From assembly GCA_000092065.1 (NCBI GenBank), contig CP000593.1: DNA of 64,000 bases; one strand, 5' to 3'. How positions within the stretch are numbered: position 1 is the first letter of the stretch; each line of letters begins with the position of its first letter. This document shows positions 6,181-21,914 of the stretch, piece after piece. Origin of the DNA: Ostreococcus lucimarinus (Eukaryota). The notes beneath the pieces are model-generated. The model had not been told where the DNA came from and did no database searches. It saw only the letters and a list, made by a program, of their open reading frames with translations. The position numbers and the translations under genes were made by a program.

Positions 6181-7218
6181 TTATTCATCCGTCGCGCGCT
6201 CGTCGGCGTCCAAGTTATCGAGCGAAAAGGTTTGCTCGGCCTCGTACGTTTGGTACGCTTTTCGCGCCATTTCTTCGAGTTCTCCGCCGCACAATTCTGA
6301 AATCTCGCGCCAGAGCGGCTTAGGAAGCTGAATCACTTGTTTCAGCGACAACTCCTTGGCTGCGGCGACTGGAAACCACACCCCACGCTCGCACTCGCTC
6401 TCTAGCTGCCCGGGCGCCCAGCCGCAATATCGGGCGAAAAATTTAAATTCGTCGGCGTGACACGTCGAGCCGTCTTGCTGCACCAATTCACACGCGCTGT
6501 CGTAGCCGCCGAGATACACCCCGGGTAAGACCTCGACGCTCCCCTTCACGTCCTCTCTGCCGTGCAAAAAACTCACGGTGCCATCGCCGACGTCACCGCC
6601 AAAATACAACGCGTTCTTCGCGAACGGCCCGTTTGCTTCCCCGCTCACGTACCCCATGTCGTACTGCGTCGGCCGGTTCAAAATAACCCCCATCGACCCA
6701 TTCTCGTGATGTTCGAGCACCAAGATGACCGCTTGATGAAAATACTGCTGCGACATCCTAAACTCGTGATCGGCCGCGACGAGCAAGCACCCCTTCTCCG
6801 GCGCGCCGATGACGTGCGCCCACGGCGCCGACGCCGCCAGCCTCGGATTTTGCGTCTCCAGCACCTTCAAATTTTCCTCCGACACCGCCGCCGCGCGCGC
6901 CCGCTCTTCCTCCGGCGTCACCGCGCGCTCGCGCGCCAACAACTGCGCCCGAAATTCCCGCCAATCGCTCTCCAGCGCCGGCGCCACGTCCTGCGTTCGT
7001 CGCTCCGCGCGCGTCCTCGTCAGTCCCCCATCGTCCCTCGCCCCCACCGCGCGCGTCGCGTCGTCCCGCGCGCGTCGCGTCGTCGCGTCATCACGCACGT
7101 CGCTCTCCGGCGCGCCCTCGCCCTTCGCCGCGCGCGTCGTCCGCCGTCGTCGTCGCGCGCGTCCGCATCGCGACGCGACCACCGTCGTCGTCGTCATCGC
7201 GCGTCCCGTCGTCGCCAT
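6181..7218 (-). CDS. UPF0301 / DUF179 (YqgE/AlgH family) protein, probably organelle-targeted
   Basis: Core GVILNRPT...LYFGGDV...GYSGWAPGQLE-like motifs of the AlgH/DUF179 family. An SDWREFRAQL motif matches plant plastid DUF179 proteins. The N-terminus is R/T-rich. Confidence 0.65.
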   Translation of the reverse strand: MATTGRAMTTTTVVASRCGRARRRRRTTRAAKGEGAPESDVRDDATTRRARDDATRAVGARDDGGLTRTRAERRTQDVAPALESDWREFRAQLLARERAVTPEEERARAAAVSEENLKVLETQNPRLAASAPWAHVIGAPEKGCLLVAADHEFRMSQQYFHQAVILVLEHHENGSMGVILNRPTQYDMGYVSGEANGPFAKNALYFGGDVGDGTVSFLHGREDVKGSVEVLPGVYLGGYDSACELVQQDGSTCHADEFKFFARYCGWAPGQLESECERGVWFPVAAAKELSLKQVIQLPKPLWREISELCGGELEEMARKAYQTYEAEQTFSLDNLDADERATDE

Positions 7219-7744
7219 CGCGCGCGGTCGGCGCGCCGATCGACGGCGTCGTCGTCGTCGTCGTCGCGTTCGCGTCCGTCGCGACGCGCGCGCCGCCGTC
7301 GTCGCGCGTCGCGATGCGCGCGCGTCGCCGCGACGAACGGTCGACGTCGTCGCGCGCGGTGTTTAGCTATCCATATACCATAGCATAGATACCGCAAACG
7401 TATCCTGAAATACAGCGTTACGTGCGTTGTACGTGACGGGAGTATTTAATGACGAACCGTCGATGGGACTCCAGACGTTTACAATACGATGTGGGACGTC
7501 ATAAAATTTAGAGGCCGCGCGCGGCGCCGACGCGCGGTCGTTGCGCGCGCGTCGCGCGTCGCGCGTCGCTCGTCGTCGCGCGCGTCGCGCGTCGCGCGTC
7601 CCCGCGCGCGGCGCCATGCGCGGCGGCGCGCGCCGCGACGGACGACCGCCGCGCGGCGCGAACGACGACGGCATCGACGATGATTTCGACGACGACGTCG
7701 AGCCGCCGCTTCGCGCGACGACGAAATCGCCGGTGCGGTTCGGC
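7219..7744. promoter_or_regulatory. Divergent (bidirectional) promoter region between the minus-strand DUF179 gene and the plus-strand TMEM135-like gene; contains the least GC-rich stretch of the region (7370-7500)
   Basis: Head-to-head gene arrangement. The local drop in GC (ccatataccatagcatagataccgcaaacgtatcc...) is typical of a core promoter in a GC-rich genome. This is inference. Confidence 0.35.
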
Positions 7745-9217
7745 ATGGCGCCGCACCCGACGCTGTGCGCGTCCGTGCCGGAGGATCTGAAGAATTACGG
7801 CCGGCGCGGGCGCGCGAGCGCCGGGACGCATCGGTGTCCGTGCGCGCACGCGGCGCGGGACGAGACGCGGGACGACGACGACGCGAGGACGTGCGCGGGA
7901 AGCGCGATGGAAACGGCGCGGCGAGGGTTCGCGGCGGCGTACGCGACGCGGGCGGGGATAAGTTTGGCGGCGCACGTCGTCAGGACGCTCAGGCGCGGGT
8001 CGGCGAGGAAGTGCTTGGATTTGGGTCACCTGGTGGGGGAGGAGACGTTGAGGTATCGGGAAGACGCGGCGCGGTTCGGATTGTTCGCGGGCGGGTTCGC
8101 GGGGACGTACTCGGCGACGCGGTGTTGGCTGTGTTACGTCACGGCGCCGAGCGGGGGGGAGGAGGGCGCGGAGACGGTGGAGAAGGGCGCGGAAAAGGGC
8201 GCGGACGCCGTCGTCGAGCGGTCGGCGAGGGAGCCGTTCACGCCCGAGTCCGCGGCGTCCATCGCGGGCGGCGTCGCGGGGCTGTCCATATTCTTCCTCA
8301 AACCGAAGTATCGTCGCGCGTTTTCGCTGTATCTTCTCGCCAAGCTCGCGCAGGCGAGCTGGGCGAGCGCGCAGAAGGAGCATCCTTGGATGAAGGAGCG
8401 AGGTCCGGCGGCGTGGAGGCACACGAATTTCGCGCTCTTCACGCTTTCGTCCGCGCAAATCATGTACGCGTACGTCATGCGACCCGATACGCTCGATCCA
8501 GGGTTTTGGAACTTTATCGTGAACGCCGGGCCGATCGACAAGCAGACGCTCGGCGCCGTGCGCGAGAGCGTGCGAAGCGGCGCGAGCGCCGCCGTGGTGG
8601 GGTGCGACCACACGCACGGAAGCACGGGCGCGCTGTGGTGCTCATCCCACGTCGCTGCGTCATCGTTTTCCACTTTCAAAAAGTGTTTTCCGTTTTACTT
8701 TTCGATTCATTACGTGCCATACGTGGTTCTTAATTTAAGCAAAGCGGTGCAGAAGCCGCTGTCGACGCTGTATCGCGCGACCAAGGCGACGGTGCGCTCG
8801 TCCACGATGATTTCCACGTACGTTGGTTTATATATGAGCACGGTGTGTTTGCATCGAAACTCCGGTCTCCGCGATCACCGCGCGCTGTACTATCTCGCCG
8901 GGGTCGTCGCCAGCGGCGCGTTGTTGGTCGAAGACGAAGGCAGGCGCACCGACTTGACTCTTTGGATTGTACCGCGCGCCGTTGATTCCCTCGTATTAGT
9001 CTTGGTGCGCAAAGGCATACTTCCGCACGTCGCGAATTTCGAAAGTTATTTATTCGCTCTCGTGATGAGCGGCGTGATGAACCTTTACGAGAGAGAACCG
9101 GACGTGTTGGAGCGCAATTTAACGCGCTTCATCGCTCGCTTCGTCGAACCGCCGACGGCGACCAGTGTCGGGCGCTTATCGAGCATCTCCCGCGACGCCA
9201 GCGTCTCGCTCATGTGA
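7541..9217 (+). CDS. Multi-pass membrane protein, TMEM135-like (Tim17-family peroxisomal membrane protein); start uncertain
   Basis: Several predicted TM helices, with Cys/His-spaced N- and C-terminal regions resembling TMEM135. Alternative starts lie at 7616 (MRGGAR) and 7745 (MAPHPT). Confidence 0.4.
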   Translation: MRARRASRVARRRARRASRVPARGAMRGGARRDGRPPRGANDDGIDDDFDDDVEPPLRATTKSPVRFGMAPHPTLCASVPEDLKNYGRRGRASAGTHRCPCAHAARDETRDDDDARTCAGSAMETARRGFAAAYATRAGISLAAHVVRTLRRGSARKCLDLGHLVGEETLRYREDAARFGLFAGGFAGTYSATRCWLCYVTAPSGGEEGAETVEKGAEKGADAVVERSAREPFTPESAASIAGGVAGLSIFFLKPKYRRAFSLYLLAKLAQASWASAQKEHPWMKERGPAAWRHTNFALFTLSSAQIMYAYVMRPDTLDPGFWNFIVNAGPIDKQTLGAVRESVRSGASAAVVGCDHTHGSTGALWCSSHVAASSFSTFKKCFPFYFSIHYVPYVVLNLSKAVQKPLSTLYRATKATVRSSTMISTYVGLYMSTVCLHRNSGLRDHRALYYLAGVVASGALLVEDEGRRTDLTLWIVPRAVDSLVLVLVRKGILPHVANFESYLFALVMSGVMNLYEREPDVLERNLTRFIARFVEPPTATSVGRLSSISRDASVSLM

Positions 9218-9355
9218 AAGTATATATTCGTGTTGTCCACACTCATCGTCTCAGCCTCGCCGCGTCGCGTTCGACGCGACTCGCGCGTTCGCGGCGTCCC
9301 GTTCGCGGCGCCCCGCGCGGGCTTCACACGCCGCCGCGCCCGAACGCCGCGCGCG

Positions 9356-10555
9356 ATGTCCACCATCGTCATCGACGACAAGTACGCGTTGAGTGACTCG
9401 GACTCTGTCGACGCCGACGCCCCGCGATGCGCGAACTGCGGCGTCGCGAGCGACCGACTCAAAAAGTGCGCCAAGTGCCGGCGCGCGCACTTTTGCAACG
9501 CCGCGTGCCAGCGCGCGGCGTGGGACGCGCACGCGCGCGAGTGCGTCGCGGATGCGAACGCGAAACCGGCGTACAAACCGCCCGAACCGCCGCGAATGCC
9601 GACGAAGGCGGAAAAGGAAGAGGCGAAGGAGAGCGAGACGCGGCGAATTCGCGAGACGACGTTGCCGCGAGCGCGCGCGGCGTTGCGAAGAGATGGCGTC
9701 TCGACAACGGTAGATTTAGACGAGTTGATCGAGGGATTAGAAGACGCGATCGTGTTCGCGATCGGGGAGGAGGATCAGGGGTTGACTCGCGAGGTGCGGT
9801 TGGTGCTGGCGAGGGCGTATTTAGAGGCGAAGCGCGCGGATGAATGTTTGCACTATTTGGCGCCGGCGCTGGAGGAGGCGCGAAAGGAGGGCGGGGCGGC
9901 GAGCGCGGACGCGCACACGCTCGCGGCGAAGGCGCATTGCGCGAAGGGCGAGAAAGAACAGTGTCGCAAGGAATTGACGGCGGCGTTGGATTGCGCGAGC
10001 GAATCGACGAGCGACGAAGCGCAGTGCGATACGTTGCTCGACGCGGGGATTATTTTACACGATCTCGGTGACTGGGAGCGATGTGCGCCGTTGCTCAGCA
10101 CCGCGGGCGAGGCGGCAGAAAAACTCGGTCGCTTGCGCGAGGCGGCGCGCGCGTATAATCGCGCGGGTTCGGCACTTTTGCGTTCGGGTCGGCCCGACTA
10201 CGCCGGGCGATGCTGGACTCGAGAGCTGCGAGTGCTAGAGGCGGACGATTCCACCGATCCAGGGACGTTGGCGCAGGCTTTCGCGAACTGTGCGAGCGCT
10301 TTTTTACTCACTCGCGGCGAAGACGATGATGCGTTCAACTTACACAAGAAGTCCGCGCTCACGAAGGCCCGCGAGTCTGGAAATGACGCTGAGGCTCGCG
10401 TTTACTTGCAATTAGGCAACGCTTACAAACTCGCCGGAGACGCGATAGATGATAGTTTAGCGCGCGCGAAAGATTGTTTCGAGAAAGCAAAGTCGTTATC
10501 GGCGACCGATGCTGGCGAGATCGCTTCGCGGGCTTTAGAAATGCTTAGTCTGTAA
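9356..10555 (+). CDS. MYND-type zinc-finger protein with TPR-like repeats
   Basis: CANCGV...CAKCRRAHFCNAACQRAAWDAHARECV is a canonical MYND finger. The C-terminal two-thirds is a helical repeat of TPR type. The first ATG inside the longer ORF is at 9356 (MSTIVIDDKY). Confidence 0.6.
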   Translation: MSTIVIDDKYALSDSDSVDADAPRCANCGVASDRLKKCAKCRRAHFCNAACQRAAWDAHARECVADANAKPAYKPPEPPRMPTKAEKEEAKESETRRIRETTLPRARAALRRDGVSTTVDLDELIEGLEDAIVFAIGEEDQGLTREVRLVLARAYLEAKRADECLHYLAPALEEARKEGGAASADAHTLAAKAHCAKGEKEQCRKELTAALDCASESTSDEAQCDTLLDAGIILHDLGDWERCAPLLSTAGEAAEKLGRLREAARAYNRAGSALLRSGRPDYAGRCWTRELRVLEADDSTDPGTLAQAFANCASAFLLTRGEDDDAFNLHKKSALTKARESGNDAEARVYLQLGNAYKLAGDAIDDSLARAKDCFEKAKSLSATDAGEIASRALEMLSL

Positions 10556-10685
10556 TCATGATTGCAAAGCTGAGCGTTTCGTGTGAAACGCGCTTTGGCG
10601 AAGCGCCCTACTAATCTACTGTGTCGTTCACCGTCGGTACTGCATCGATGAAAGCGGCGTGCGCGTTAAAGCGTATGCAACGATG

Positions 10686-12242
10686 TTATCCATCGAGCAT
10701 TTGTAAAAATTCATCGTTGGGGAAATTGGACAAATTAAACTCCGTCGACGCCGAAGTCGAGAGGCAGCCGTGCTTGAGCGCCCAGTCGCGAAGTTCAAAG
10801 TTGCCCTCTTCCGTGGCTTTCTGAATCGTCCAACCGTCCCAAGGGCATCCGTGCTGACGAAGCCATTTTAAGACGTCCAAGTGTCCGCCTATAGCGGCGA
10901 ACGCGCACGTGCGTGAGTTCCACAAGCACCCGTGCTGACGCGCCCACTTCAAAATGTGCAAATTTCCCTCCCACGCGCTGTACTCGCACGTGTACATGTT
11001 CCATGGACAACCGCGCGCGCGCGCCCACTGCAGCACGCTCAAGTGACCACCGAGCGCGGCGTGCGCGCACGTTTGTTCATCCCAAGGCACTTCTTCGGCG
11101 CGAAGGTACTCGAGCAACTCGACGTGACCGCCGTACGCCGCGGCGGCGCACACGCGCGCGTCGACGGGGCACCCCTGTTTATGCGCCCACTTCAACACCT
11201 CGAGATGGCCGTGTCGCGCCGCTTGCACGGGCGTCCACAAGTTCCAGGGGCAGCCTTGCATTCGTAACCACTTGAGCATGTCCAAATGCCCACCCACCGC
11301 GGCTTCTTGGCACGTCCAGTCGTGCAGGATCCCCCCTTGCGAGTGCAAAAACTTGAGGCAGTCGAGGTGGCCGAAGCGCGCGGCGACGTCGCCCGCCGAG
11401 TGCGGCCATGGACAGTTCTCCGCTCGCAACCACTCGAGAACGTGTAAGTGTCCGCCCTTGGCCGCGTCCCACACCGCTTGCTCGTCCCAGGTCTCGCCCT
11501 CCGCGCGCAACCACTTCAGCGCCTCCAAGTGCCCGCCCTCGCACGCGTACTGAATCGCGCTCGAGTGCCAGTGGAAGTTGTGTCGTTTCAGCCACTTCAG
11601 CACCGCGAGCTGGCCGTTCTTCGCCGCCTTCGCGCACACCGCGCTTCCCCACGGACACCCTTCCGCCTTTAACCAGCGTAAAATCTCCAAATGCCCTCCT
11701 CGAGCGGCGCAAATCGGCGTCAATTCGTCCCACGGACACCCCACCTCGCGAAGCCAGCACATCATTTCAAAGTACCCCCCGTTCGCCGCGTTCGCGAACA
11801 CCGCCGAGTTCAACGGGCACCCGTGCGCGTGCGCCCACTTCAAAATATCCAAGTGCCCTCCCCGCGCCGCCGCCACGCACGTGTCCGCCGTCCACGGGCA
11901 CCCGTTTCGATACCCCCACTCCTCCGGTTTCGGCCCCGCGTAGAACCCCTGCTCGCGCAGCCACTGCACGCTCTCCAGCTTCCCGCTCGCCGCCGCCGCG
12001 CGACACAACCGCCAATCCCACGGCACGCCCTGCGTCTGCGCCCACCTCAACATCGCCGGCGAGTGCACGAACTTACTCACCCGCATCGCGCACACCGGAT
12101 CGCGTCCCGACTCGATCACCGCGTCCAGGCACCCGTGCGACACGCGCGACAGCACGTTGCAATCCGTGTCGTCCAGGTACTTCATGATGTACTGCTGGAA
12201 CACGTCCGGCAGCATTCCCTGCGACACCAATCGCTTCGGCAT
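10686..12242 (-). CDS. F-box-like protein carrying about 14 tandem 33-aa ankyrin-like repeats
   Basis: N-terminal F-box-like segment (LPDVFQQYIMKYLDDTDCNVLSRVSHGCLDAV). It is followed by regular repeats of consensus AAxxGHLxVLKWLRxxGCPWDxxTCxxAA, with a 99-nt period. Confidence 0.6.
   Translation of the reverse strand: MPKRLVSQGMLPDVFQQYIMKYLDDTDCNVLSRVSHGCLDAVIESGRDPVCAMRVSKFVHSPAMLRWAQTQGVPWDWRLCRAAAASGKLESVQWLREQGFYAGPKPEEWGYRNGCPWTADTCVAAARGGHLDILKWAHAHGCPLNSAVFANAANGGYFEMMCWLREVGCPWDELTPICAARGGHLEILRWLKAEGCPWGSAVCAKAAKNGQLAVLKWLKRHNFHWHSSAIQYACEGGHLEALKWLRAEGETWDEQAVWDAAKGGHLHVLEWLRAENCPWPHSAGDVAARFGHLDCLKFLHSQGGILHDWTCQEAAVGGHLDMLKWLRMQGCPWNLWTPVQAARHGHLEVLKWAHKQGCPVDARVCAAAAYGGHVELLEYLRAEEVPWDEQTCAHAALGGHLSVLQWARARGCPWNMYTCEYSAWEGNLHILKWARQHGCLWNSRTCAFAAIGGHLDVLKWLRQHGCPWDGWTIQKATEEGNFELRDWALKHGCLSTSASTEFNLSNFPNDEFLQMLDG
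10690..12010 (-). repeat. Coding tandem array, 99-nt (33-aa) period, ankyrin-like
   Basis: Repeated GGHL[DE]xLKW...GCPW units are visible across the ORF. Confidence 0.6.
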
Positions 12243-12635
12243 CGTTCACTCGACGCGCGGAAGAGCGCCGCTCGCGTCGCGTCGCGTCGCGTCCCGCGTC
12301 CGCGCGCGCCGTCGTCCGGACGCCGTCGTCCGCGGTATGCCGTCGCGTCCCGCGTCGCGTCCCTCTTCGCGTCGCGCGCGTCGCGTCGCGTTCGCGCACG
12401 GCGCGCGCGGTGATTCGAGCGCGTCGCGTCGCGTCGATCGACGCCGTCGATCGGCGCTCGCGGCGTCGCGCGCGCGTGTCGCGTCGACGCGCGCGATGAG
12501 GGTGGCTCCCTCGCGCGCGCTTTTTCTGTGTGTCCGTGTTGTCGTCTCAGTCTCAGGAGTCGCCGTGTCGAGTCATGACTCGACGCGAGTTATGGCTGGA
12601 CGCGAGTTATGACTGTTTGCGCATACGCGTGGGGC

Positions 12636-12666
12636 GACCGACCGCGACCGACCGACCGACCGACCG
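12636..12666. repeat. (GACC)n / (CCGA)n tetranucleotide microsatellite in an intergenic region
   Basis: The sequence gaccgaccgcgaccgaccgaccgaccgaccga is visible, between the minus-strand ankyrin-like repeat gene and the MLO gene. Confidence 0.7.
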
Positions 12667-12790
12667 AATCGCGCGTCCCTCGGCGGCGCGCCGCGCGACG
12701 ACGGCGCTCGCGCGCGCGCCAAAGAACGACCGGGTCGACGACCGGATCGACGACGCGCGATCGCAAACGCGCCGACGCTTAACGCGCGCC

Positions 12791-14671
12791 ATGGCGGGCG
12801 GCGGCGGCGCGGGATGGAGCGCGACGAAGGGGTATAAACTCGGCGGTTTGTTTCTCGCGCTCGCGCTGCTCTCCATCGCGCTCGCGCGCGCGAACGTCGT
12901 CGTCGGACGAACGCTGAGGAAACACAAGCGGAGCGCGATGCTGCACGTGTTCGAACACCTGCAGCTGGAGCTGATGCTGCTGGGGACGCTGTCGCTGCTG
13001 CTGACGGCGCTGCAGGACGCGCTGATGAAGATTTGCGTGAAGGAGGAGGGGTCGTACGGGACGGATGAGTGCCCAAAAGGCGAGGGACCGCTGTGGAGCG
13101 CGACGACGCTGCATCAGACGCATATTTTCATATTCATTTTGGCGTGCACGCACGTGAGTTACGTGGCGGTGAGCGCGTACGTGTGCTCGTGGAAGCTGCG
13201 GCAGTGGCGGCGTTGGGAGACGGAGGGGGAGGTGAAGGTGCACGCGTTGAATCCGAAGATTAACCCGAGGAACGCGACGGGGATTGTGCATTTGGTGTGG
13301 CGCGCGTTTTGGTCGCAGTTTCGATTCGCGGTGGACAAGGGGATGTACTTGTCGTTGCGAAGATTGTTTTTGGAGCGCACGGGGGCGACGCACGATTTCA
13401 ACTTTTACGATTACTTGCGCGAGTCCATGGAGGAAGACATGAGCTCGCTCATCGGGATGACGGTGTTGATGTGGTCGATGGCTACGATTTTCGTGACGGT
13501 GCCGCAGGCGTTGTTCTTATCCGCGGGGATCGTGTGTCTGGGCGTCATGCTCTTCGTGGGGACGATGCTCGAGAGCGTGGCGTTGCGTCTCGCGCAAGCT
13601 GCGTACGAACGTTTCGCCGACGAGAACGAACTCGAAGAGAGGTTGGCGGAAGAAGAGCTAGACATTTCTATCGAAAAATCACCCACTGTGCGGCGACGCG
13701 AGCTGCGAAAAGAGATTGATTCGCAAAATTTCTTTTGGTTGGGTCGACCGCGTTTGCTGCTCAAAGTTTACCAATTCGTGTTGTTTGAAAACGCCATTTC
13801 ACTATCCATGCTCATCTTCAGCATGTGGCAAGATAAAAAGTGGTTGACCTACAACGCGAGTATGTCGGTCGGCACCGCCTGGGCGCTGTTTGCCGTCGAC
13901 GTCTGCGTGTTGATGCACAGCGCTTTGTTCATTCTTCCCGTGTACGCCATCACGTCGACCGTTGGTTCACATTGCGCGACTTCTTTGCAAGAATACGCCG
14001 ATAAACTCGGCATCACGCGCGAGGCCGCTTTACAAGCGTATTTAGAACGCGCCAATGAGTCGATGTCCACAGCTGACGCCGCAGAGGTGGCGGCGTACGA
14101 TTTGAGTTTACTCGGGCGTGACGTCAAGGAGGTCGTCTCGAGCGGAGATTTCGATCAAGAAGCCGTGCCAGTTTCGGCGCTACCTAAAGACTTACAAGCT
14201 GTCGCGGGTGCGTCTAGTCGTCAATTATCCGCTGGTCTCAAAGATATCCAGGCCAGAGGCCAGGCGCGAAAATCGTGGGCGAAGGCGGCGGGCAAGCTCG
14301 CGGCTGGGCAAAAAGATTACTCGCGAGAGAATGAAAAATCAATCACCAGTTTGCTCGGCGCTATCTTGTCAAATCAAATGAAAGCCGAGCTCGCAAAGCA
14401 AAAGCGAGAAAAAGAAGCGAAAGAAGCGGCAAGAGCGGCGAGTCCTGGTGTTGTCGGAGCGTTGCAGCGAACATTTTCGAAGAAGGATATAGCCACGATG
14501 TCCGTCGGTCAACCATCCGCCGACGACGTCACCGAAGACTCGCCAATTCCAAGTTCGAAGGTCTTGGTTAGTAAACCGTCGATGAAGGACGTCTTTAGCA
14601 TGGCCTCGCCTCCTCCTAAGCCAACAATGCGTAGCTCGCTCGACGAAGAAAAAATCGTGGAGGAGCCGTAA
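12791..14671 (+). CDS. MLO: MLO-like seven-transmembrane protein
   Basis: LEHLQLELMLLGTLSLLLTALQDALMKICV and TLHQTHIFIFILACTHVSYVAVSAYV match MLO signatures (ALEKIKAELMLLGFISLLL / LHQLHIFIFVLAVFHV). Multiple TM helices and a long C-terminal tail. The first ATG (MAGGGGAGW) is at 12791. Confidence 0.75.
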   Translation: MAGGGGAGWSATKGYKLGGLFLALALLSIALARANVVVGRTLRKHKRSAMLHVFEHLQLELMLLGTLSLLLTALQDALMKICVKEEGSYGTDECPKGEGPLWSATTLHQTHIFIFILACTHVSYVAVSAYVCSWKLRQWRRWETEGEVKVHALNPKINPRNATGIVHLVWRAFWSQFRFAVDKGMYLSLRRLFLERTGATHDFNFYDYLRESMEEDMSSLIGMTVLMWSMATIFVTVPQALFLSAGIVCLGVMLFVGTMLESVALRLAQAAYERFADENELEERLAEEELDISIEKSPTVRRRELRKEIDSQNFFWLGRPRLLLKVYQFVLFENAISLSMLIFSMWQDKKWLTYNASMSVGTAWALFAVDVCVLMHSALFILPVYAITSTVGSHCATSLQEYADKLGITREAALQAYLERANESMSTADAAEVAAYDLSLLGRDVKEVVSSGDFDQEAVPVSALPKDLQAVAGASSRQLSAGLKDIQARGQARKSWAKAAGKLAAGQKDYSRENEKSITSLLGAILSNQMKAELAKQKREKEAKEAARAASPGVVGALQRTFSKKDIATMSVGQPSADDVTEDSPIPSSKVLVSKPSMKDVFSMASPPPKPTMRSSLDEEKIVEEP

Positions 14672-14748
14672 GATGAGACGTCTGAATGAATCGCGAAACG
14701 CGTAAACGTGTTGATATTATCCTAATACGATCAAACCTTATTATTAAA

Positions 14749-16914
14749 TTACGGAATGCAACACGACACGATGCCGAGACGAGCCGTGGAACACGGCGCT
14801 ACTTCCCGCCACTTGTTCGCGCGCACATCGTACACCTCCACCGCCGCGATGGCACTCACGCCGTCGAAACCGCCGATGGCGTAGACGGCGTCACCGGAAG
14901 GATCCACCACGGTGGCGTGCAATTGTCGACGATAATGCATCGGGGCTAAGTCCCACCATCCTCGCTTTGCTTCGCGAGGATCGTGTGCCTCGACAAGGTT
15001 CAAGACGCTTCGTTCGTCGCGTCCGCCGACGGTGAGCATCATCCCTCGCGCGTTCAAGCTCGCCACGCCCAGATCCCGACGCTTATGCTTCAAAGGTTGA
15101 CCAGTCGTCCACGTATCCGCGCGCGGGTCATACACCTCGCACAGATCTAATATTTCTCCCGTGCCGCTGAATCCACCAACGGCGTAGAGCTTCCCGCCAA
15201 GGTTGGCGACGCCGAGCGTGGCGCGACCTTCGCTCATCGGAGCGCAGGTGACCCAGGACGACGAAGGTTGCGAACCCACACCGCTAGCGTCCGCGCCGAG
15301 ACCTTCGCCGTAATCGAACGAACCGAACGTCTTGTTCGCTTCCATGGAGTGTAAGTAGTACTCCCCGTCGTATCCTCCGCACGCAAACGTCACGCCGTCG
15401 ATCATCGTCGACGCGCACCAAATGCGCGGAACGCTCATGGGATCTACGACGCGCCACTTCCCCACGCTCTCGCGGTATTCTTCAACGCTTCTCAGTGCTT
15501 CGTTCCCATCGCTACCACCGATGACGACGGTACCTCCTATAGCGGTCGTGGAACACGCCGCGTACGCTCGCGGCGTATTGAGCGACGCGAACGGCTTCCA
15601 ACTCAGGTACCCCCTCGCGTCCGCCTCGCCCGGTCTCATGTACTCCACGTCACTCAAAGGAATGTCGCTTCCACGCTCTAGTCCTCCGATGCACAAAACG
15701 CGTCCGACGAGATCTATGCCGTCCAACGCCGACGCGCGCGCGGATTCTGGAACGACGCCCGCCGCCGCGTTTGTTTGGGCGGTTTTCGTCAGCGACGCGT
15801 TCTCCACCGCTCGCGTCAACGTCGTCACCTTATCCTTCGCCCTCTTCCATCGACTCGTCGTCCCCACCGCCGGCGACCCAGCGATCGTTTCTTCCATCGC
15901 TTCGTCCACCCACGCCGCGACTTTCGCGTCGTCGCCGCGCGCCGGTTCGAAGCCTCTCGACTCGCCGTCGACGTCCTCCCCTCCGAAACTCTGACTCGCC
16001 GCGTACGACATCGACCGCGCGCTCATCGACCCCCCGGTCGCTCGCGCGTACCTCTCGTGCACCTTGATTTCGGTGTCAAACTTTATCCTCTCCGCCTCGA
16101 ATCGCATCCGTTCCCTCTCGAACGCCTCGCGTTCGTCTCGCAGCGCCGCGTACGCCCGCTCCAACTCATCCTCCTGCATCATCCTTCGCGCGTCGAAATC
16201 CCGCCGCTCGCGTTCGAGCAAATCCTTCCCTCGCAGCACCTCTCGCCGCGTCTCTTCGATCCTCTCCAGCGCTTCTTCGCGCTCCGCGTCGATCTCTCTT
16301 CGCGTCGCCTCCGCCGCGCGCCGCGCGTCTCGCGCGTAATCCGCCGCCACCGCCTCCATGCGTTCGTACGCCGCTCGCACGCGCGTCGGCGCGCCGTCAT
16401 CGCGCGTCCATCGCGTTCGCGCGTCTTCCTCGTCGCTCTCGCGCGATCGCGTCGCTCTCGCGCCGCGCGCGTCGTCGTCGTCCGACGCGTCACCGTTCCA
16501 ACGCATCCATTCGCTTTTGTCGCGCTCGCGTCGCGTCGCGCGCGCGCGTCGCGCGTCCGAGCGCGCGGACGCGCGCGAGCGCGCGTCGTCGTCGTCGTCC
16601 GCGCGCGTCGGACGCGCGCGCGTCGCGCGCATCGACGCCGGCGCGCGATGTGCGATCGCGCGCGCGACGACCAATGCGGCATCGCGCGACGCGCCGACGC
16701 CGGCGCGTCCGCGCGCGCGCCGCTCGATCGCGCGCGATGTTCCGCGAGTCCGCGCACTGCGCCGCGGCGATCGCGCTCGCGAGCGCGTTCGCGCTGGAGA
16801 TGCATTGCGAATTTCGCGCGATCGGTGGGACGGACGCGGACGCGAAGACGACGACGGCGACGACGGCGACGACGACGACGACGCGGACGCGCGCGGACGA
16901 TGCGGTGGAATCAC
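14749..16914 (-). CDS. Kelch-repeat (beta-propeller) protein with an N-terminal coiled-coil; start uncertain (candidate ATGs at 16632, 16506, 16359)
   Basis: Repeated Kelch units (VIGGSDGNEALRSVEEY, YAVGGFSGTGEILDLCEVYDPRADTW, YAIGGFDGVSAIAAVEVYDVRANKW), preceded by an E/R-rich coiled-coil. The upstream ORF portion is R-rich low complexity, and the annotated ORF start is not an ATG. Confidence 0.6.
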   Translation of the reverse strand: MIPPHRPRASASSSSSPSSPSSSSRPRPSHRSREIRNASPARTRSRARSPRRSARTRGTSRAIERRARGRAGVGASRDAALVVARAIAHRAPASMRATRARPTRADDDDDARSRASARSDARRARATRRERDKSEWMRWNGDASDDDDARGARATRSRESDEEDARTRWTRDDGAPTRVRAAYERMEAVAADYARDARRAAEATRREIDAEREEALERIEETRREVLRGKDLLERERRDFDARRMMQEDELERAYAALRDEREAFERERMRFEAERIKFDTEIKVHERYARATGGSMSARSMSYAASQSFGGEDVDGESRGFEPARGDDAKVAAWVDEAMEETIAGSPAVGTTSRWKRAKDKVTTLTRAVENASLTKTAQTNAAAGVVPESARASALDGIDLVGRVLCIGGLERGSDIPLSDVEYMRPGEADARGYLSWKPFASLNTPRAYAACSTTAIGGTVVIGGSDGNEALRSVEEYRESVGKWRVVDPMSVPRIWCASTMIDGVTFACGGYDGEYYLHSMEANKTFGSFDYGEGLGADASGVGSQPSSSWVTCAPMSEGRATLGVANLGGKLYAVGGFSGTGEILDLCEVYDPRADTWTTGQPLKHKRRDLGVASLNARGMMLTVGGRDERSVLNLVEAHDPREAKRGWWDLAPMHYRRQLHATVVDPSGDAVYAIGGFDGVSAIAAVEVYDVRANKWREVAPCSTARLGIVSCCIP

Positions 16915-17054
16915 TCGATCGCGCGGACGCGTCGGACGTCGAGCGCGGGACGCGAGGACGGGGTGAGGATGGATGGACGACGCGGGAGGGCGACGACGAC
17001 GACGACGACGACGACGAGGCGAGGAAGGAACGAAGCGCGAAAAGTCGGACGTTC

Positions 17055-18428
17055 ATGGCGTCGAACGGCGTGCAATGCGCGATGCTGCGGCCGAGGGCGC
17101 TGCGGGAGAGTCGGCGGGCGGTGCAGGCGTGGGCGGAGCTGGGGGTGATTATGTTTTTGTTTTGGTTTTGCGACCGAAGCGGGGCGGTGCGGGAGGCGAA
17201 GAAGTCGTACGATCGGGATTTGTTATTCGCGGTGTTCGCGTTGCTCGGGACGTACGGGTGGAAGACGACGCTGAAGGAGTCGAAGACGCACGCGCCGTTG
17301 CACAGGGAACAGACGGAGGAGATGAAGGGATGGATGCAGGTATTGTTCTTGTTGTATCACTACTTTGACGCGGGGGAAATGTACAACTTGATTCGAGTCT
17401 TCATCGCGGCGTACGTGTGGATGACTGGCTTCGGTAACTTTTCCTTTTATTACGTCAAGAAGGATTTCTCCGCGGTCAGGTTCGCGCAGATGATGTGGCG
17501 GTTGAACTTTTTCGTCTTTGTGACGTGCGCGGTGATGAAGAACGACTACATGCTGTATTACATTTGCCCGATGCACACGCTGTTCACGTTGCTCGTGTAC
17601 GGCGCGCTCGCGATCGCTCGAGAGAAGAATTCTGAGCCAAAATGGATCTATGGAAAGTTCATTGCATGTTTCGCCATCGTAGCGGCGGTTTGGGAAATTC
17701 CTGGGGCGTTTAAGAGGATTTTCACGCCGTTTACGTTTTTGTTTAGATACGTCAATCCGGCGAAACCAGACGTGCATCCGTTGCACGAGTGGCAGTTCCG
17801 GTCTGGATTGGATCGTTACGTGTGGATTTACGGCATGGCGTGCGCGTACTTTCACCCGAAATATGAGTTGACGATGAAATGGATCGACGAGCGTTCGACG
17901 ACGCGAGAGCGGATGATGTATCAGGGTGGCGTCGTCGCCCTCGCGAGCGGCGCGCTGTACTGGTGGTGGGTGACGTTTTTCACATTGGACAAGGTTGAGT
18001 ACAACAAGTACCATCCTTACACGAGTTGGATCCCAATAACTGCGTTCTTTGTCTTGCGAAACTCTACGAAGAAGCTCCGCGAGAATCATATCGAATTATT
18101 TTGCATATGTGGCAAGGTGACGCTCGAGACATACATCGCGCAGTTTCACATTTGGTTGTCGACGTCGCAGATGCCGAACGCTCAGCCGAAAATGTTGATG
18201 TCTCTCGTCCCGGGCTATCCTCTACTCAATCTTATGGTGTGCTCGTACATTTATATTGGAATTTCGCACCGTATCTTTGACGTCACGAATGTTCTAAAAT
18301 CGGCGTGCATTCCGAGTAAGGCGGATAATGCGACTCTCGCAAACAACGCGATTTTTGGCGGCATCGTCGTCGCAACGGCGCTCGGTCTCGGCACATTCAC
18401 GTCCCTGATATTCACTGGAAAAACATAG
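17055..18428 (+). CDS. Cas1p-type 10-TM O-acetyltransferase (RWA/CASD1-like)
   Basis: The HREQTEEMKGWMQVLFLLYHY motif matches the Cas1_AcylT / REDUCED WALL ACETYLATION signature (TEEWKGWMQ), and the rest is a multi-TM body. The first ATG after the overlapping minus-strand Kelch gene is at 17055 (MASNGVQC). Confidence 0.7.
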   Translation: MASNGVQCAMLRPRALRESRRAVQAWAELGVIMFLFWFCDRSGAVREAKKSYDRDLLFAVFALLGTYGWKTTLKESKTHAPLHREQTEEMKGWMQVLFLLYHYFDAGEMYNLIRVFIAAYVWMTGFGNFSFYYVKKDFSAVRFAQMMWRLNFFVFVTCAVMKNDYMLYYICPMHTLFTLLVYGALAIAREKNSEPKWIYGKFIACFAIVAAVWEIPGAFKRIFTPFTFLFRYVNPAKPDVHPLHEWQFRSGLDRYVWIYGMACAYFHPKYELTMKWIDERSTTRERMMYQGGVVALASGALYWWWVTFFTLDKVEYNKYHPYTSWIPITAFFVLRNSTKKLRENHIELFCICGKVTLETYIAQFHIWLSTSQMPNAQPKMLMSLVPGYPLLNLMVCSYIYIGISHRIFDVTNVLKSACIPSKADNATLANNAIFGGIVVATALGLGTFTSLIFTGKT

Positions 18429-18893
18429 CTAGCGCTAGACGACGCTTGAATTAATTATTCTGAATTCGTACGTGTACTGGTATTATAACTCGACCGAATC
18501 GAAATTGTCGTCGCGAAAGTCGACGTCGGGGAGCGGCGTCAGGACTCAGAGACACCTCTGAGTATTTTATAGGTCTCTAATCGCCTCTGAAATATCGTCG
18601 CTGAATCACTATTCTTCGTGCCGACGAATGCACCAGCGACGACAAAGACACACGTGATAGCCACCAGACCGACGATCGCGCAAACAGCCATTATGGCTTC
18701 AAACTTTTGGCAAGCTTCGTCGTTGTCGTCGTCGTCGTCGACGAACGCTCCGACGTCGTCGACGAAATCCGTTTGCGCCGAGCACGACGTGAGTGGTGGA
18801 GCAGAAGGTCGCGTCGTGTCATCCGACGTTTCATTCATCGTTAAGGCGCCATCGGACGTCATCGTGGCGAATTGTGGGGAGTCTCTCGGCTCG

Positions 18894-21800
18894 TCACGGC
18901 GACATCGGAGTGTGCGATGGGACACCGGACCTCGTCGAGCGGAGTTGCTTCCTTTCTCGGATCACTTTCGCGCAACCAGGGTTCCCACTGATGTTAGCGA
19001 CATCCTCGGCTGATCTTCCGTCTTTATCCAACAAGTTATCTTCAATCCCAGCGTCGAATAAAATCCTCAAGATGGTCGGCATTCCCAGCCTCGCCGCGAC
19101 GTGGAGCGCCGTGCTCCCTTGATAGTCTTGGCTTGACAAATTCACCCCGGCGACGATCAAAAGTTTTATTCTCTGCACTTGATCCTGTGAGATTGCGGAG
19201 TGAAGCACGGTTTGGTCGTCAGGGGAGTGATAGAGACCGCCTGCGGTGACAAGAATCTTCACCAATGGAAGACTTCCTACCGAGACGGCGCGCGATAGCG
19301 GCGAATACCCAGCCTTGCTCATGGCATTGGGATCTGCGCCCCACTTGAGGAGTAGCTTCACGACGTTATTCTGCTTGTTTTCGACAGCTACCATGAGGAG
19401 TGTGCGTCCAGCACTATCTGTGAGATGCGCATTCCGTGGCTCATCCGCAAGCGCCATGTCGAGCGCCGTCGTATCGCCCGTCACCGCCGCGACGTTGAGC
19501 TCGTGCAATTCACTTTCATACAGATCAGTAGACTTTTGGTCGAGCGCTTGCACAAAGTTGGTGTAAAGTTCGAAACCATCTTCCGCGCGGGGTCCCATCG
19601 CACTCAGCTCAAGCAAATACTTCTCTTTCAACGTACGCAAAATTTGTTTGACATCTCGAGGAAAACGTGCGAGGACGTTGTCGAGCTTGCTCGAGGAGAC
19701 GACTAAAACTTTGCACGTAGACGTCACGATGCTAGTGTGGAAGCAAGTTCGACGACAAAGCACGGCTGCGATGTTTAACCATTCACCGGGCAAGATCGTG
19801 TTAATCTTGTTACTCAGCGTTGGTTCGCGCACGTATTTTTCAGATACGATGTCCACCTTGCCGAGGCACACGTAATACATCGCCGTCGCGTCCAAGCCCT
19901 TGGACGTGAGCAGCGTTCCGGGATGATAGTACTCCACTGTTATACACTCCAAAAAGTATTGAATAAATACCGCCGACGCATTGGAGAATATCCCGCATCG
20001 ATTAATGTAGTGTTGATAGATTGCGTGTCTCAGCTCGGATTGAATCGTCGGCGGACAAAAATTCAGCACCGCTTCGTCGTCTCGACAACGCATATCGTAC
20101 TCGAGCTGCATATGTGCGTTGATCTTCTCTCTAACGGCTCTTGGAATATCGTTCCGTCGCATGAAACGTTGAAGGGACGCGATGTGATCGCGAAAGTCCA
20201 TGATTGTCGAATCGTCCTTGGTGACGATTTGCGTGACGTTACCTAAAATATACGCCGTGACGCCCATGTTCAAAATCATGATAATCATGGAAAACGCTCG
20301 CTCGAGGTTACTCACGGGAGATATGTCGCCGTACCCCACGGTGGTGAGCGTTACGGTCGCCCAGTACAGTGAAGTGGTGTATTTGTCGCTAAACGTACGG
20401 CTAGGAAGATCCGGATCGTACGCGTACACCCAAGTGTTTTCATCAAACTTTTGCCAACGAGCGAGGTAGTACAAAAAGCATGCACTCCAATGACTCGCCA
20501 ACGCGATCAACAGTGCAAATTTGAGCGCTACGAACCCCAAGTACGGCAGATTAGGGTTGCCTTCGAGCTCGCTCATCATGCGTCGGATGCGATACAATCG
20601 AAGCAGGCGAAGCATGCCCAACGCAGCCAGTACTCTCGCCGCCACCGTGCCTGGAGTGGTGGCACCGGCAAACATGAGATCAATCGGTAGCGACGCGAGC
20701 AAGTCAATGACGAACCATCCTCCAAGATATTTCATCGCAATCGCGTGCTTGTCCCAAATCAATTTGCCATACTTCTCAATTGGACGATAAAAGTTGATTG
20801 CGATGTCGGCTATGAAGATGATGTCGAAACAAATCTCCATGACTTCGTTCCAAGCTAGGCGTGCCGAGCGATGCTCGCCCTTGAATGCTAAAACCGCCGG
20901 TTCCGTGAAAGCGACGATTAGAATAAATATGTTCACCGTCCGCGTCCACGCGCGCGCGTACGCACTCGCGGGATGACACAGTAGACTCCTAAAACCGTAC
21001 GTGTCATTTTCATCCAATCGCTTGCTCCCGAACGTGTCTACCCGGCGGACTTTTTCCGTCATCCGCTTGACGTAAGTCGCAGACGGAACTAACATACGGG
21101 AGATCATACTCGGCTTTTTGCGCTCGTTCGTCTGCTCGTTCGTCTGCTCGTCGTCTTCCGCTTTCGCCGACACTGCCTTCTTCGACCACGGTAGTTTAAG
21201 CCTTTTCTTCGAATCTTTCTCCGAGTCACTCTCCAAGAACCACGAATTCCTCCTTTGCAAACCTCTGTCTTCGTCCTCGTCGTCCCACGTGCCCAACTCC
21301 GCCGCCGTCGAAGACGTCGGCTTTCTTTCCGTGCGCTCACCGAACGACGATAACGACCCCGAAGAAGTCTCCGCGGTCCCGCCCGGCGCGTCCGCGCTCT
21401 CGCCCTCCGCCCGCGCGCGCGTCGTCGTTCTCTCGTCGTCGTCTCCCTCGTCCTCGTCCCGACTCGACAGCGCGGGATTCTTCGCGCGTTCCTCCACCCC
21501 GCGTCGATCGTCCTCGCTCGGCCCTCGCCGCCGCGACGCGCTCGCCTCGTCGCGCATCTTCGTCGATTCACAATTCACGAATCGCGTTCGGCGCTCGTTC
21601 GTCCGCGCTCGGCGCTCGCCGTCGCGCGACGCGCGCGCGCGCGTCGCGTCGTCGCCGCGCGGTCCGCGATCCCGGGTCTCGTCGTCGTCGTCGTCGTCGC
21701 GCGCGACGGTCGACCTCTCGACGCGCGCGAGAGTGGCGGATGGCGACGCGCGGCGCGGGACGGCACTTCGCGCCGCGCGTCGCGCGCGCGATGAGCGCGC

Positions 21801-21914
21801 CGAGCGAGAGCTATAACTGGTGCGTCGCGCGGACGGCGCGCGGACGGCGCGCGGACGGCGCGCGAGGTCGTCGCGCGGCGCGGTGGGCGCGAACGCGTTC
21901 GGAATGTGGGACAC
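18894..21914 (-). CDS. Plant Shaker-type (AKT1-like) voltage-gated K+ channel: 6TM + pore + cNMP-binding + ankyrin repeats; start uncertain (an ATG at about 21557 is plausible)
   Basis: Selectivity filter TTVGYGDISPV, a positively charged S4 (RLLRLYRIRRM), a cNBD-like region, and C-terminal ankyrin repeats (GRTLLMVAVENKQNNVVKLLLKWGADPN...). The N-terminus is low-complexity. Confidence 0.85.
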   Translation of the reverse strand: MSHIPNAFAPTAPRDDLARRPRAVRAPSARRTSYSSRSARSSRARRAARSAVPRRASPSATLARVERSTVARDDDDDDETRDRGPRGDDATRARASRDGERRARTNERRTRFVNCESTKMRDEASASRRRGPSEDDRRGVEERAKNPALSSRDEDEGDDDERTTTRARAEGESADAPGGTAETSSGSLSSFGERTERKPTSSTAAELGTWDDEDEDRGLQRRNSWFLESDSEKDSKKRLKLPWSKKAVSAKAEDDEQTNEQTNERKKPSMISRMLVPSATYVKRMTEKVRRVDTFGSKRLDENDTYGFRSLLCHPASAYARAWTRTVNIFILIVAFTEPAVLAFKGEHRSARLAWNEVMEICFDIIFIADIAINFYRPIEKYGKLIWDKHAIAMKYLGGWFVIDLLASLPIDLMFAGATTPGTVAARVLAALGMLRLLRLYRIRRMMSELEGNPNLPYLGFVALKFALLIALASHWSACFLYYLARWQKFDENTWVYAYDPDLPSRTFSDKYTTSLYWATVTLTTVGYGDISPVSNLERAFSMIIMILNMGVTAYILGNVTQIVTKDDSTIMDFRDHIASLQRFMRRNDIPRAVREKINAHMQLEYDMRCRDDEAVLNFCPPTIQSELRHAIYQHYINRCGIFSNASAVFIQYFLECITVEYYHPGTLLTSKGLDATAMYYVCLGKVDIVSEKYVREPTLSNKINTILPGEWLNIAAVLCRRTCFHTSIVTSTCKVLVVSSSKLDNVLARFPRDVKQILRTLKEKYLLELSAMGPRAEDGFELYTNFVQALDQKSTDLYESELHELNVAAVTGDTTALDMALADEPRNAHLTDSAGRTLLMVAVENKQNNVVKLLLKWGADPNAMSKAGYSPLSRAVSVGSLPLVKILVTAGGLYHSPDDQTVLHSAISQDQVQRIKLLIVAGVNLSSQDYQGSTALHVAARLGMPTILRILFDAGIEDNLLDKDGRSAEDVANISGNPGCAKVIRERKQLRSTRSGVPSHTPMSP

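Follow-up and report, generated by a model that had tools for sequence, protein, structure and literature searches.

A conserved Ostreococcus lucimarinus gene with an F-box-like N-terminus and fourteen short, 27-residue ankyrin repeats

Ankyrin solenoids are able to act as substrate receptors of cullin-RING ligases, as in FEM1. AnkB of Legionella pneumophila is a secreted bacterial effector with a CaaX farnesylation motif and just 2–3 canonical 33-residue repeats. It carries an N-terminal F-box followed by the ankyrin repeats and has been described as a substrate adaptor of the Skp1-Cul1-F-box (SCF) ubiquitin ligase that works through Skp1 (PMC2790608). The poxvirus ANK/PRANC proteins are reported to recruit SCF1 with an F-box-like Skp1-binding module (Sonnberg et al. 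2008, as cited in PMC5871332). In pandoraviruses the ankyrin, MORN and F-box proteins form large, tandemly duplicated, strain-specific families (PMC5995976). Here we examine a gene at positions 10686–12242 of a 64-kb window, a stretch of 64,000 nucleotides from contig CP000593.1 of Ostreococcus lucimarinus (assembly GCA_000092065.1), to which all coordinates refer. The gene falls within a class that is already known, though poorly described: F-box proteins bearing short ankyrin repeats. With some reserve, we favor the view that it encodes a conserved SCF substrate receptor composed of an F-box-like head and a short-ankyrin solenoid.

The locus resembles each of these systems in part. With AnkB it shares the order of an N-terminal F-box and then ankyrin repeats, a likeness of architecture. 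The ANK/PRANC proteins also combine an ankyrin solenoid with an F-box-like module, but they are host-range factors with canonical 33-residue units and have the reverse order, ankyrins at the N-terminus and a truncated F-box at the C-terminus. This arrangement is not found here. The closest likeness is to proteins of giant viruses (Pandoravirus, Cedratvirus, Pithovirus and contigs of giant-virus metagenome-assembled genomes, GVMAG) and of protists (Balamuthia, Capsaspora, Seminavis and Raphidocelis), which have the same 27-residue W/GCPW unit and the same order of N-terminal F-box and C-terminal array. The viral genes occur in multiple copies, strain-specific and duplicated in tandem (PMC5995976), whereas the algal gene is single-copy, syntenic, strongly constrained and cellular, and its F-box is more divergent than those of the viral and protist group, falling below the Pfam threshold.

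The gene is a complete, single-exon coding sequence on the minus strand (10686–12242). One open reading frame (ORF) of 518 codons plus stop starts at 12242 and ends at 10686 in the ORF list; it specifies the F-box-like head followed by the solenoid. The preliminary description of this DNA was right in reporting an ORF with about 14 regular tandem repeats at this place, but it gave the period as 33 amino acids or 99 nucleotides. Nucleotide self-identity of the ORF peaks at lags of 81, 162, 243 and 324 (0.49–0.50, against at most 0.32 at other lags), and protein self-identity peaks at 27, 54 and 81 residues. Within the regular array, nucleotide self-identity at lag 81 is 0.516 as compared with 0.291 ± 0.014 in 2000 codon shuffles (z = 15.9), while at lag 99 it is 0.273, equal to background. 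Cutting the protein every 27 residues gave 14 tandem units in perfect register (aa 121–498, nt 10749–11882, minus strand) with the consensus TCxxAAxGGHLxVLKWLRxxGCPWDxx. The consensus string proposed earlier stands and is itself 27-periodic. A hidden Markov model (HMM) made from the 14 units recovered 14 in-frame matches at nt 10749–11882, as expected for the units on which it was trained. It also gave two weak, degenerate matches upstream of the array in the protein sense, about 1.5 units, and no match elsewhere in the window outside the ankyrin gene. Clearly, the period is 27 residues or 81 nucleotides, as indicated by slicing, the unit HMM and lag-81 autocorrelation, and by the structural model and alignments to designed ankyrin repeat proteins (DARPins) presented below.

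The units had also been called nearly identical, with high nucleotide identity, and this does not hold. Pairwise identity between units averages 0.43 for amino acids (range 0.19–0.70) and 0.53 for nucleotides, where it never exceeds 0.68; no exact repeat within the ORF is longer than 16 nt. Tandem Repeats Finder, run on 9500–13500 at its lowest threshold, a minimum score of 30, reported no array within the ORF; its only matches were GC-rich simple repeats in the intergenic region upstream of the gene. The ORF therefore lacks the marks of a minisatellite-like coding array, namely detectable copies that are alike at the DNA level and vary in number. Conservation resides in particular columns of the unit: G9 is present in 13/13 units, A5, A6 and L14 in 12/13, W16 in 11/13, H10 and W24 in 10/13, and C22 and P23 in 9/13. 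The tryptophan and CPW positions are thus conserved but, contrary to the preliminary description, not invariant.

That the repeats are ankyrin-like was borne out by searches with Pfam families of the Ank clan (PF00023, PF12796 and PF13637). The 518-aa protein matched Ank_4 with E 2.3e-33 and 113.9 bits (cutoff 22.7), Ank_2 with E 5.6e-29 and 101 bits, and Ank with 62.2 bits. The period does not conform to the 33 residues of the ankyrin superfamily, and Ank_4 model positions 3–49 are covered by just 41 residues of the protein. The top sequence matches in the PDB are DARPins and consensus-ankyrin chains. In HMMER alignments of six units to these proteins, each unit has a 5-residue gap at the hairpin loop and a 1-residue gap in helix 1; for example, canonical GADVNA.....TPL aligns with GCPWNL-WTPV. 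The short unit consists of a helix, a GG(H) turn, a second helix and a short GCPWD loop, and lacks the beta-hairpin with its long GADVNAxDxxG-type loop. Compared with the canonical ankyrins of Ankyrin-1/B, DARPins, Espin and FEM1, it shares AAxxGHLxxLxxL homology and helix-turn-helix stacking but is six residues shorter, has no beta-hairpin finger, and carries a tryptophan in helix 2 (position 16) and a loop of the form GCPW. From these alignments, the units are canonical 33-residue ankyrin repeats from which five residues of the beta-hairpin loop and one residue of helix 1 are missing.

An AlphaFold2 (AF2) model of the protein has a mean predicted local distance difference test (pLDDT) of 89.6 and a predicted template modeling score of 0.80, with most of the array at pLDDT 95–98. 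It contains one helix pair for each unit and no strands. The pairs have the features of ankyrin repeats: they are antiparallel, joined by the AAxxGH turn, carry LxxLL in the second helix and stack into a solenoid. In a fold search of the PDB, Ankyrin-1 was the best match (E 2.7e-12), with AnkB, Espin, FEM1 and DARPins next. Superposition on solved ankyrin structures was poor (template modeling score 0.2–0.4, root-mean-square deviation (rmsd) 5–20 Å). Foldseek also returned pentatricopeptide repeat (PPR) solenoids at E ~1e-8, which speaks against an assignment by shape: because PPR solenoids score similarly, fold geometry alone cannot separate ankyrin from other alpha-solenoids. The array is homologous to ankyrin, yet its superhelix is unlike that of any solved ankyrin domain, as the poor global superposition implies. 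Since the superhelix probably differs, the binding geometry of short-ankyrin solenoids is probably unlike the DARPin/ankyrin paradigm. No experimental structure of the 27-residue unit was found among the PDB matches, and a literature search, which was not exhaustive, found no description of the short unit as such. An internal control is provided by the AKT-like K+ channel gene at 18894–21914 (minus strand; Ion_trans, cNMP_binding), whose canonical ankyrin repeats have period 33. One genome therefore uses both the 33- and the 27-residue forms.

To examine how the array varies, orthologues were collected from public assemblies. An identical 518-aa protein occurs in 564 blocks, mainly from marine metagenomes, where its gene is always bordered by zf-MYND/TPR on one side and Mlo on the other. 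A word-based homologue search with the first 120 aa gave just two fragments, both from close orthologues, whereas scanning metagenomes with these residues found 23 loci. The 22 with a complete ORF are 90–100% identical, each exactly 518 aa and gapless. More distant relatives were located with the neighboring Mlo protein as a guide. The gene lies at the same position in four lineages whose Mlo proteins are 74, 66, 65 and 56% identical; these orthologues are 89–92% identical and gapless over all 518 residues, and where the called gene is shorter (505 and 509 aa), only the choice of start codon differs. Altogether, 26/26 orthologous loci encode 518 aa with no indel. Synteny is broken in an AT-rich lineage with 53% Mlo identity. 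An ankyrin gene nearby in that lineage was rejected as an orthologue, as it encodes an unrelated protein with canonical ankyrins.

The preliminary description expected a rapidly evolving binding surface and either assembly collapse or copy-number polymorphism; the orthologues argue otherwise on both counts. Against the distant orthologues the ankyrin gene has dN 0.06–0.09 and dN/dS 0.04–0.10, with synonymous sites close to saturation. For the Mlo, MYND, Kelch and Cas1 neighbors in the same genome pairs, dN is 0.17–0.36 and dN/dS 0.10–0.21, so that dN of the ankyrin gene is 3–5 times below that of the four flanking genes. Because the ankyrin protein is 89–92% identical where the flanking proteins are 60–76% identical, and because of its low dN/dS, the gene is not rapidly evolving. 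It is coding, with the same call and the same neighbors in metagenome assemblies, and ranks with the most strongly constrained genes nearby; the length of its array is fixed. Among 12 distinct orthologues 104/518 sites vary. Each of units 10–13 contains 0–3 variable sites. Positions 3, 4 and 7 of helix 1, which are unit-specific, differ among orthologues in 0–1 of the 14 units, and most variation falls in the loop and at helix-2 positions 12, 13, 19 and 20. Such a pattern marks an old array whose units each have a fixed role of their own.

The N-terminal module (aa 7–46, nt 12105–12224, minus strand; LPDVFQQYIMKYLDDTDCNVLSRVSHGCLDAV...) is probably a divergent F-box. It matches the F-box pattern LPxE...L(D)...VS...V without gaps. 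L11-P12 is invariant among orthologues and is followed in two independent AF2 runs by three helices, predicted at 13–22, 25–31/34 and 36–44, so that an LP motif and three short helices fall within about 40 residues as in F-boxes. Residues 11–50 have pLDDT 82–89 in a model of the N-terminus. Ten relatives with the same architecture have a Pfam-significant F-box directly upstream of the 27-residue array, and a profile of these ten Pfam-verified segments matches solved F-box proteins in the PDB (FBXO31 at 1.1e-5; also FBXO42, FBXW7, Skp2 and TIR1). An exhaustive HMMER search with aa 1–125 matched about 24 proteins through the whole N-terminal module, three of which have Pfam F-box matches. A second profile, made from this gene and 22 N-terminal modules of relatives, was aligned to the first by hhalign with 96% probability (E 4.5e-9, residues 7–43). 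This deeper subfamily profile was required, as the near-identical orthologue N-termini alone gave only 29% probability against F-boxes. When the N-terminal model was submitted to Foldseek, about 22 of the 45 listed matches were F-box proteins in Skp1 complexes, and the model superposes on Skp1-bound F-boxes with an rmsd of 0.7–2.3 Å over 30–36 residues. Only 4 of the 42 core residues (10–51) vary among orthologues; the module is conserved as strongly as the array.

Several results weigh against this assignment. Pfam F-box (PF00646 / PF12937) matches residues 11–41 with E 0.043 and 14.2 bits, below the gathering threshold of 20.5, and the conserved tryptophan of F-box helix 3 is replaced (HGC). 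Searched against the PDB with hmmsearch, the second profile gave nothing significant, the F-box protein GID2 appearing at E ~0.8. A phmmer search of the PDB with aa 1–62 returned no F-box and only a chance match to inositol monophosphatase (E 1.7). The Foldseek matches of the N-terminal model in the PDB are all at E > 1, hence not significant, and the alignment behind that model included true F-boxes, which may have biased it toward the F-box fold. The F-box-like segment of the preliminary description is therefore upheld by the profile comparison and the three-helix model but not by the Pfam score.

Relatives of the protein are widespread. A protein search found at least 3299 homologues among 8000 scored candidates, from diatoms, Balamuthia, Capsaspora, Raphidocelis, Chloropicon, Ectocarpus and many metagenomes. 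The period is 27 residues in 117/121 cellular homologues examined. A precomputed F-box is present in only about 11/120 hits. A scan of viral contigs with the unit alignment found 76 loci, many of them on genomes the size of Pandoravirus or on giant-virus metagenome-assembled genomes, and 74 of the 75 analyzed have period 27. The earlier link of such repeats to protists and giant viruses is thereby confirmed. The best structural match overall is an ankyrin protein of Pandoravirus macleodensis (E 9e-31, TMq 0.66, 38% identity), followed by Cedratvirus, Pithovirus and Mimivirus-group proteins, some of them annotated as F-box. An LPxE-type motif precedes the first unit in 30/65 ORFs of giant-virus relatives. 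When ten such ORFs were tested, eight had a Pfam F-box or F-box-like match, six of these above threshold. A scan of viral contigs with exact peptides of the whole protein found nothing. Several giant-virus genomes contain multiple genes for F-box proteins with 27-residue ankyrins, at least 10 loci lying on one 589-kb contig, and in some viral arrays the units are far more alike than in the algal gene, with lag-27 self-identity up to 0.72. Because of this multiplicity and higher unit-unit identity, 'accordion' behavior of the array may fit the viral paralogues.

The massive, recent duplication of giant-virus paralogue families of this repeat type is an argument for reading the algal locus as a nearly identical 99-nt DNA array that expands and contracts quickly, with a fast-evolving surface and with copy-number polymorphism or assembly collapse. 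This reading is extremely improbable for the gene. The 81-nt period, the mean DNA identity of 53%, the 16-nt limit on exact repeats and the empty Tandem Repeats Finder search all speak against it, as do the 26 loci of 518 aa without indels, the low dN/dS and the exact protein in 564 assembly blocks; at the scale sampled, the unstable array is refuted. A highly regular protein repeat need not be an unstable DNA repeat, which is a general lesson for annotation. The viral relatives raise a further alternative, that the alga recently captured the gene horizontally from a giant virus and that it serves in an arms race. It is indeed in Pandoravirus, Cedratvirus, Pithovirus and GVMAG contigs that the best structural matches occur, along with many sequence relatives. 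However, in lineages with Mlo only 56–74% identical the gene is still part of a conserved block (MYND/TPR - ANK - Mlo - Kelch - Cas1 - K channel), its GC content of 0.63 is close to that of its neighbors, it is under strong purifying selection, and the scan for close viral relatives was empty. Recent viral origin is contradicted by these results and we regard it as very unlikely. The DNA of the window is eukaryotic and nuclear, from a marine, GC-rich picoeukaryote that is probably a mamiellophyte green alga, and the ankyrin gene is nuclear, single-copy and vertically inherited.

The main rival to an SCF receptor is a scaffold or adaptor with no link to ubiquitin ligases, in which the N-terminal helices are a degenerate F-box remnant or a cap and the solenoid is a stoichiometric scaffold or inhibitor. 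The low Pfam score, the missing helix-3 tryptophan, an N-terminus that alone has no significant sequence or fold match in the PDB, and the many family members without a detectable F-box are all in keeping with such a protein. Against it, the module is as conserved as the array and aligns with true F-boxes at 96% profile-profile probability, and the combination of F-box and short ankyrins recurs across protists and giant viruses. We therefore consider the scaffold rather unlikely and the SCF substrate receptor the better, if not secure, explanation. What is established here is the homology of the repeats to ankyrin, their 27-aa period and unvarying number, strong purifying selection on the gene, the homology of the head to F-boxes at the level of profiles, and the geometry as far as secondary structure. 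Because ankyrin-derived repeats are joined to a plausible F-box-like N-terminus, the SCF-adaptor role suggested in the preliminary description is reasonable; we infer that the protein binds Skp1, that ubiquitin is transferred, and where the binding face lies. In the receptor we propose, the divergent three-helix head (aa ~7–46) would dock on Skp1 while a rigid alpha-solenoid, made up of some 16 helix-turn-helix units of which 14 are regular, would hold one conserved substrate or partner. Binding would be chiefly through unit-specific inner-helix residues, which would form a long conserved face with its core in units 10–13.

Thousands of protist and giant-virus proteins annotated just as 'ankyrin' use the 27-residue, hairpin-less unit. 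One might speculate that this Trp/CPW short ankyrin is a structurally distinct solenoid class, without a solved structure, with which F-box proteins of protists and giant viruses bind their substrates. The unusually constrained, single-copy algal gene could then be a cellular prototype with an essential conserved substrate, and the viral expansions might mimic this prototype or compete with it. At present we hold this broader scheme to be doubtful. The case corrects an earlier reading and points to a structurally uncharacterized ankyrin variant with a well-constrained cellular representative, and the conserved cellular F-box/short-ankyrin gene is a tractable entry point to what such solenoids bind.

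Between the F-box-like module and the array lies a linker with an N-terminal cap and about 1.5 degenerate ankyrin-like units (aa 47–120, nt 11883–12104, minus strand), including an insertion of about 15–20 aa, YAGPKPEEWGYRNGCPWTAD. The weak unit-HMM matches fall here, at 11943–12005 and 12015–12053, and AF2 places helices at residues 53–58, 62–70, 77–86 and 89–97. This is the most variable structured part of the protein, with 21/62 sites varying. The C-terminal tail (aa 499–518 plus stop, nt 10686–10748, minus strand; STEFNLSNFPNDEFLQMLDG) is modeled with low confidence (pLDDT < 50), and the C-terminal 54 aa have no match in Pfam. Although 10/20 sites of the tail are variable, the motifs STEF and DEFL are kept in all orthologues, and this disordered tail may carry a short linear motif.

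The window as a whole is compact, seems poor in introns and has a GC content of about 60%; it includes genes for Spt6, Spo11/Top6A, Mlo, Kelch, a Cas1-type acyltransferase and the AKT-like K+ channel. The order DUF179 - unknown - MYND/TPR - ANK - Mlo - Kelch - Cas1_AcylT - small ORF - K channel (~6181–21914) is conserved in four related loci, although the proteins are just ~60–75% identical across lineages. No F-box was found in the neighboring Kelch gene. A 558-aa ORF at 7541–9217 (plus strand) has no Pfam family at E ≤ 1e-5, and related loci have an unannotated gene of 533–671 aa at the matching place adjoining the MYND/TPR gene. The region between the ankyrin gene (minus strand) and the divergent Mlo gene (plus strand), 12243–12790, contains many GC-rich simple repeats of the TCGCG / CGCGTC type (Tandem Repeats Finder rows 12272–12483) and is presumably a promoter shared by the two genes. 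GC content at third codon positions is 0.81 in the ankyrin gene and 0.70–0.75 in its four neighbors, and its dS (0.8–1.3) is below theirs (1.0–2.4). These values suggest stronger codon bias, and possibly high expression, of the ankyrin gene.

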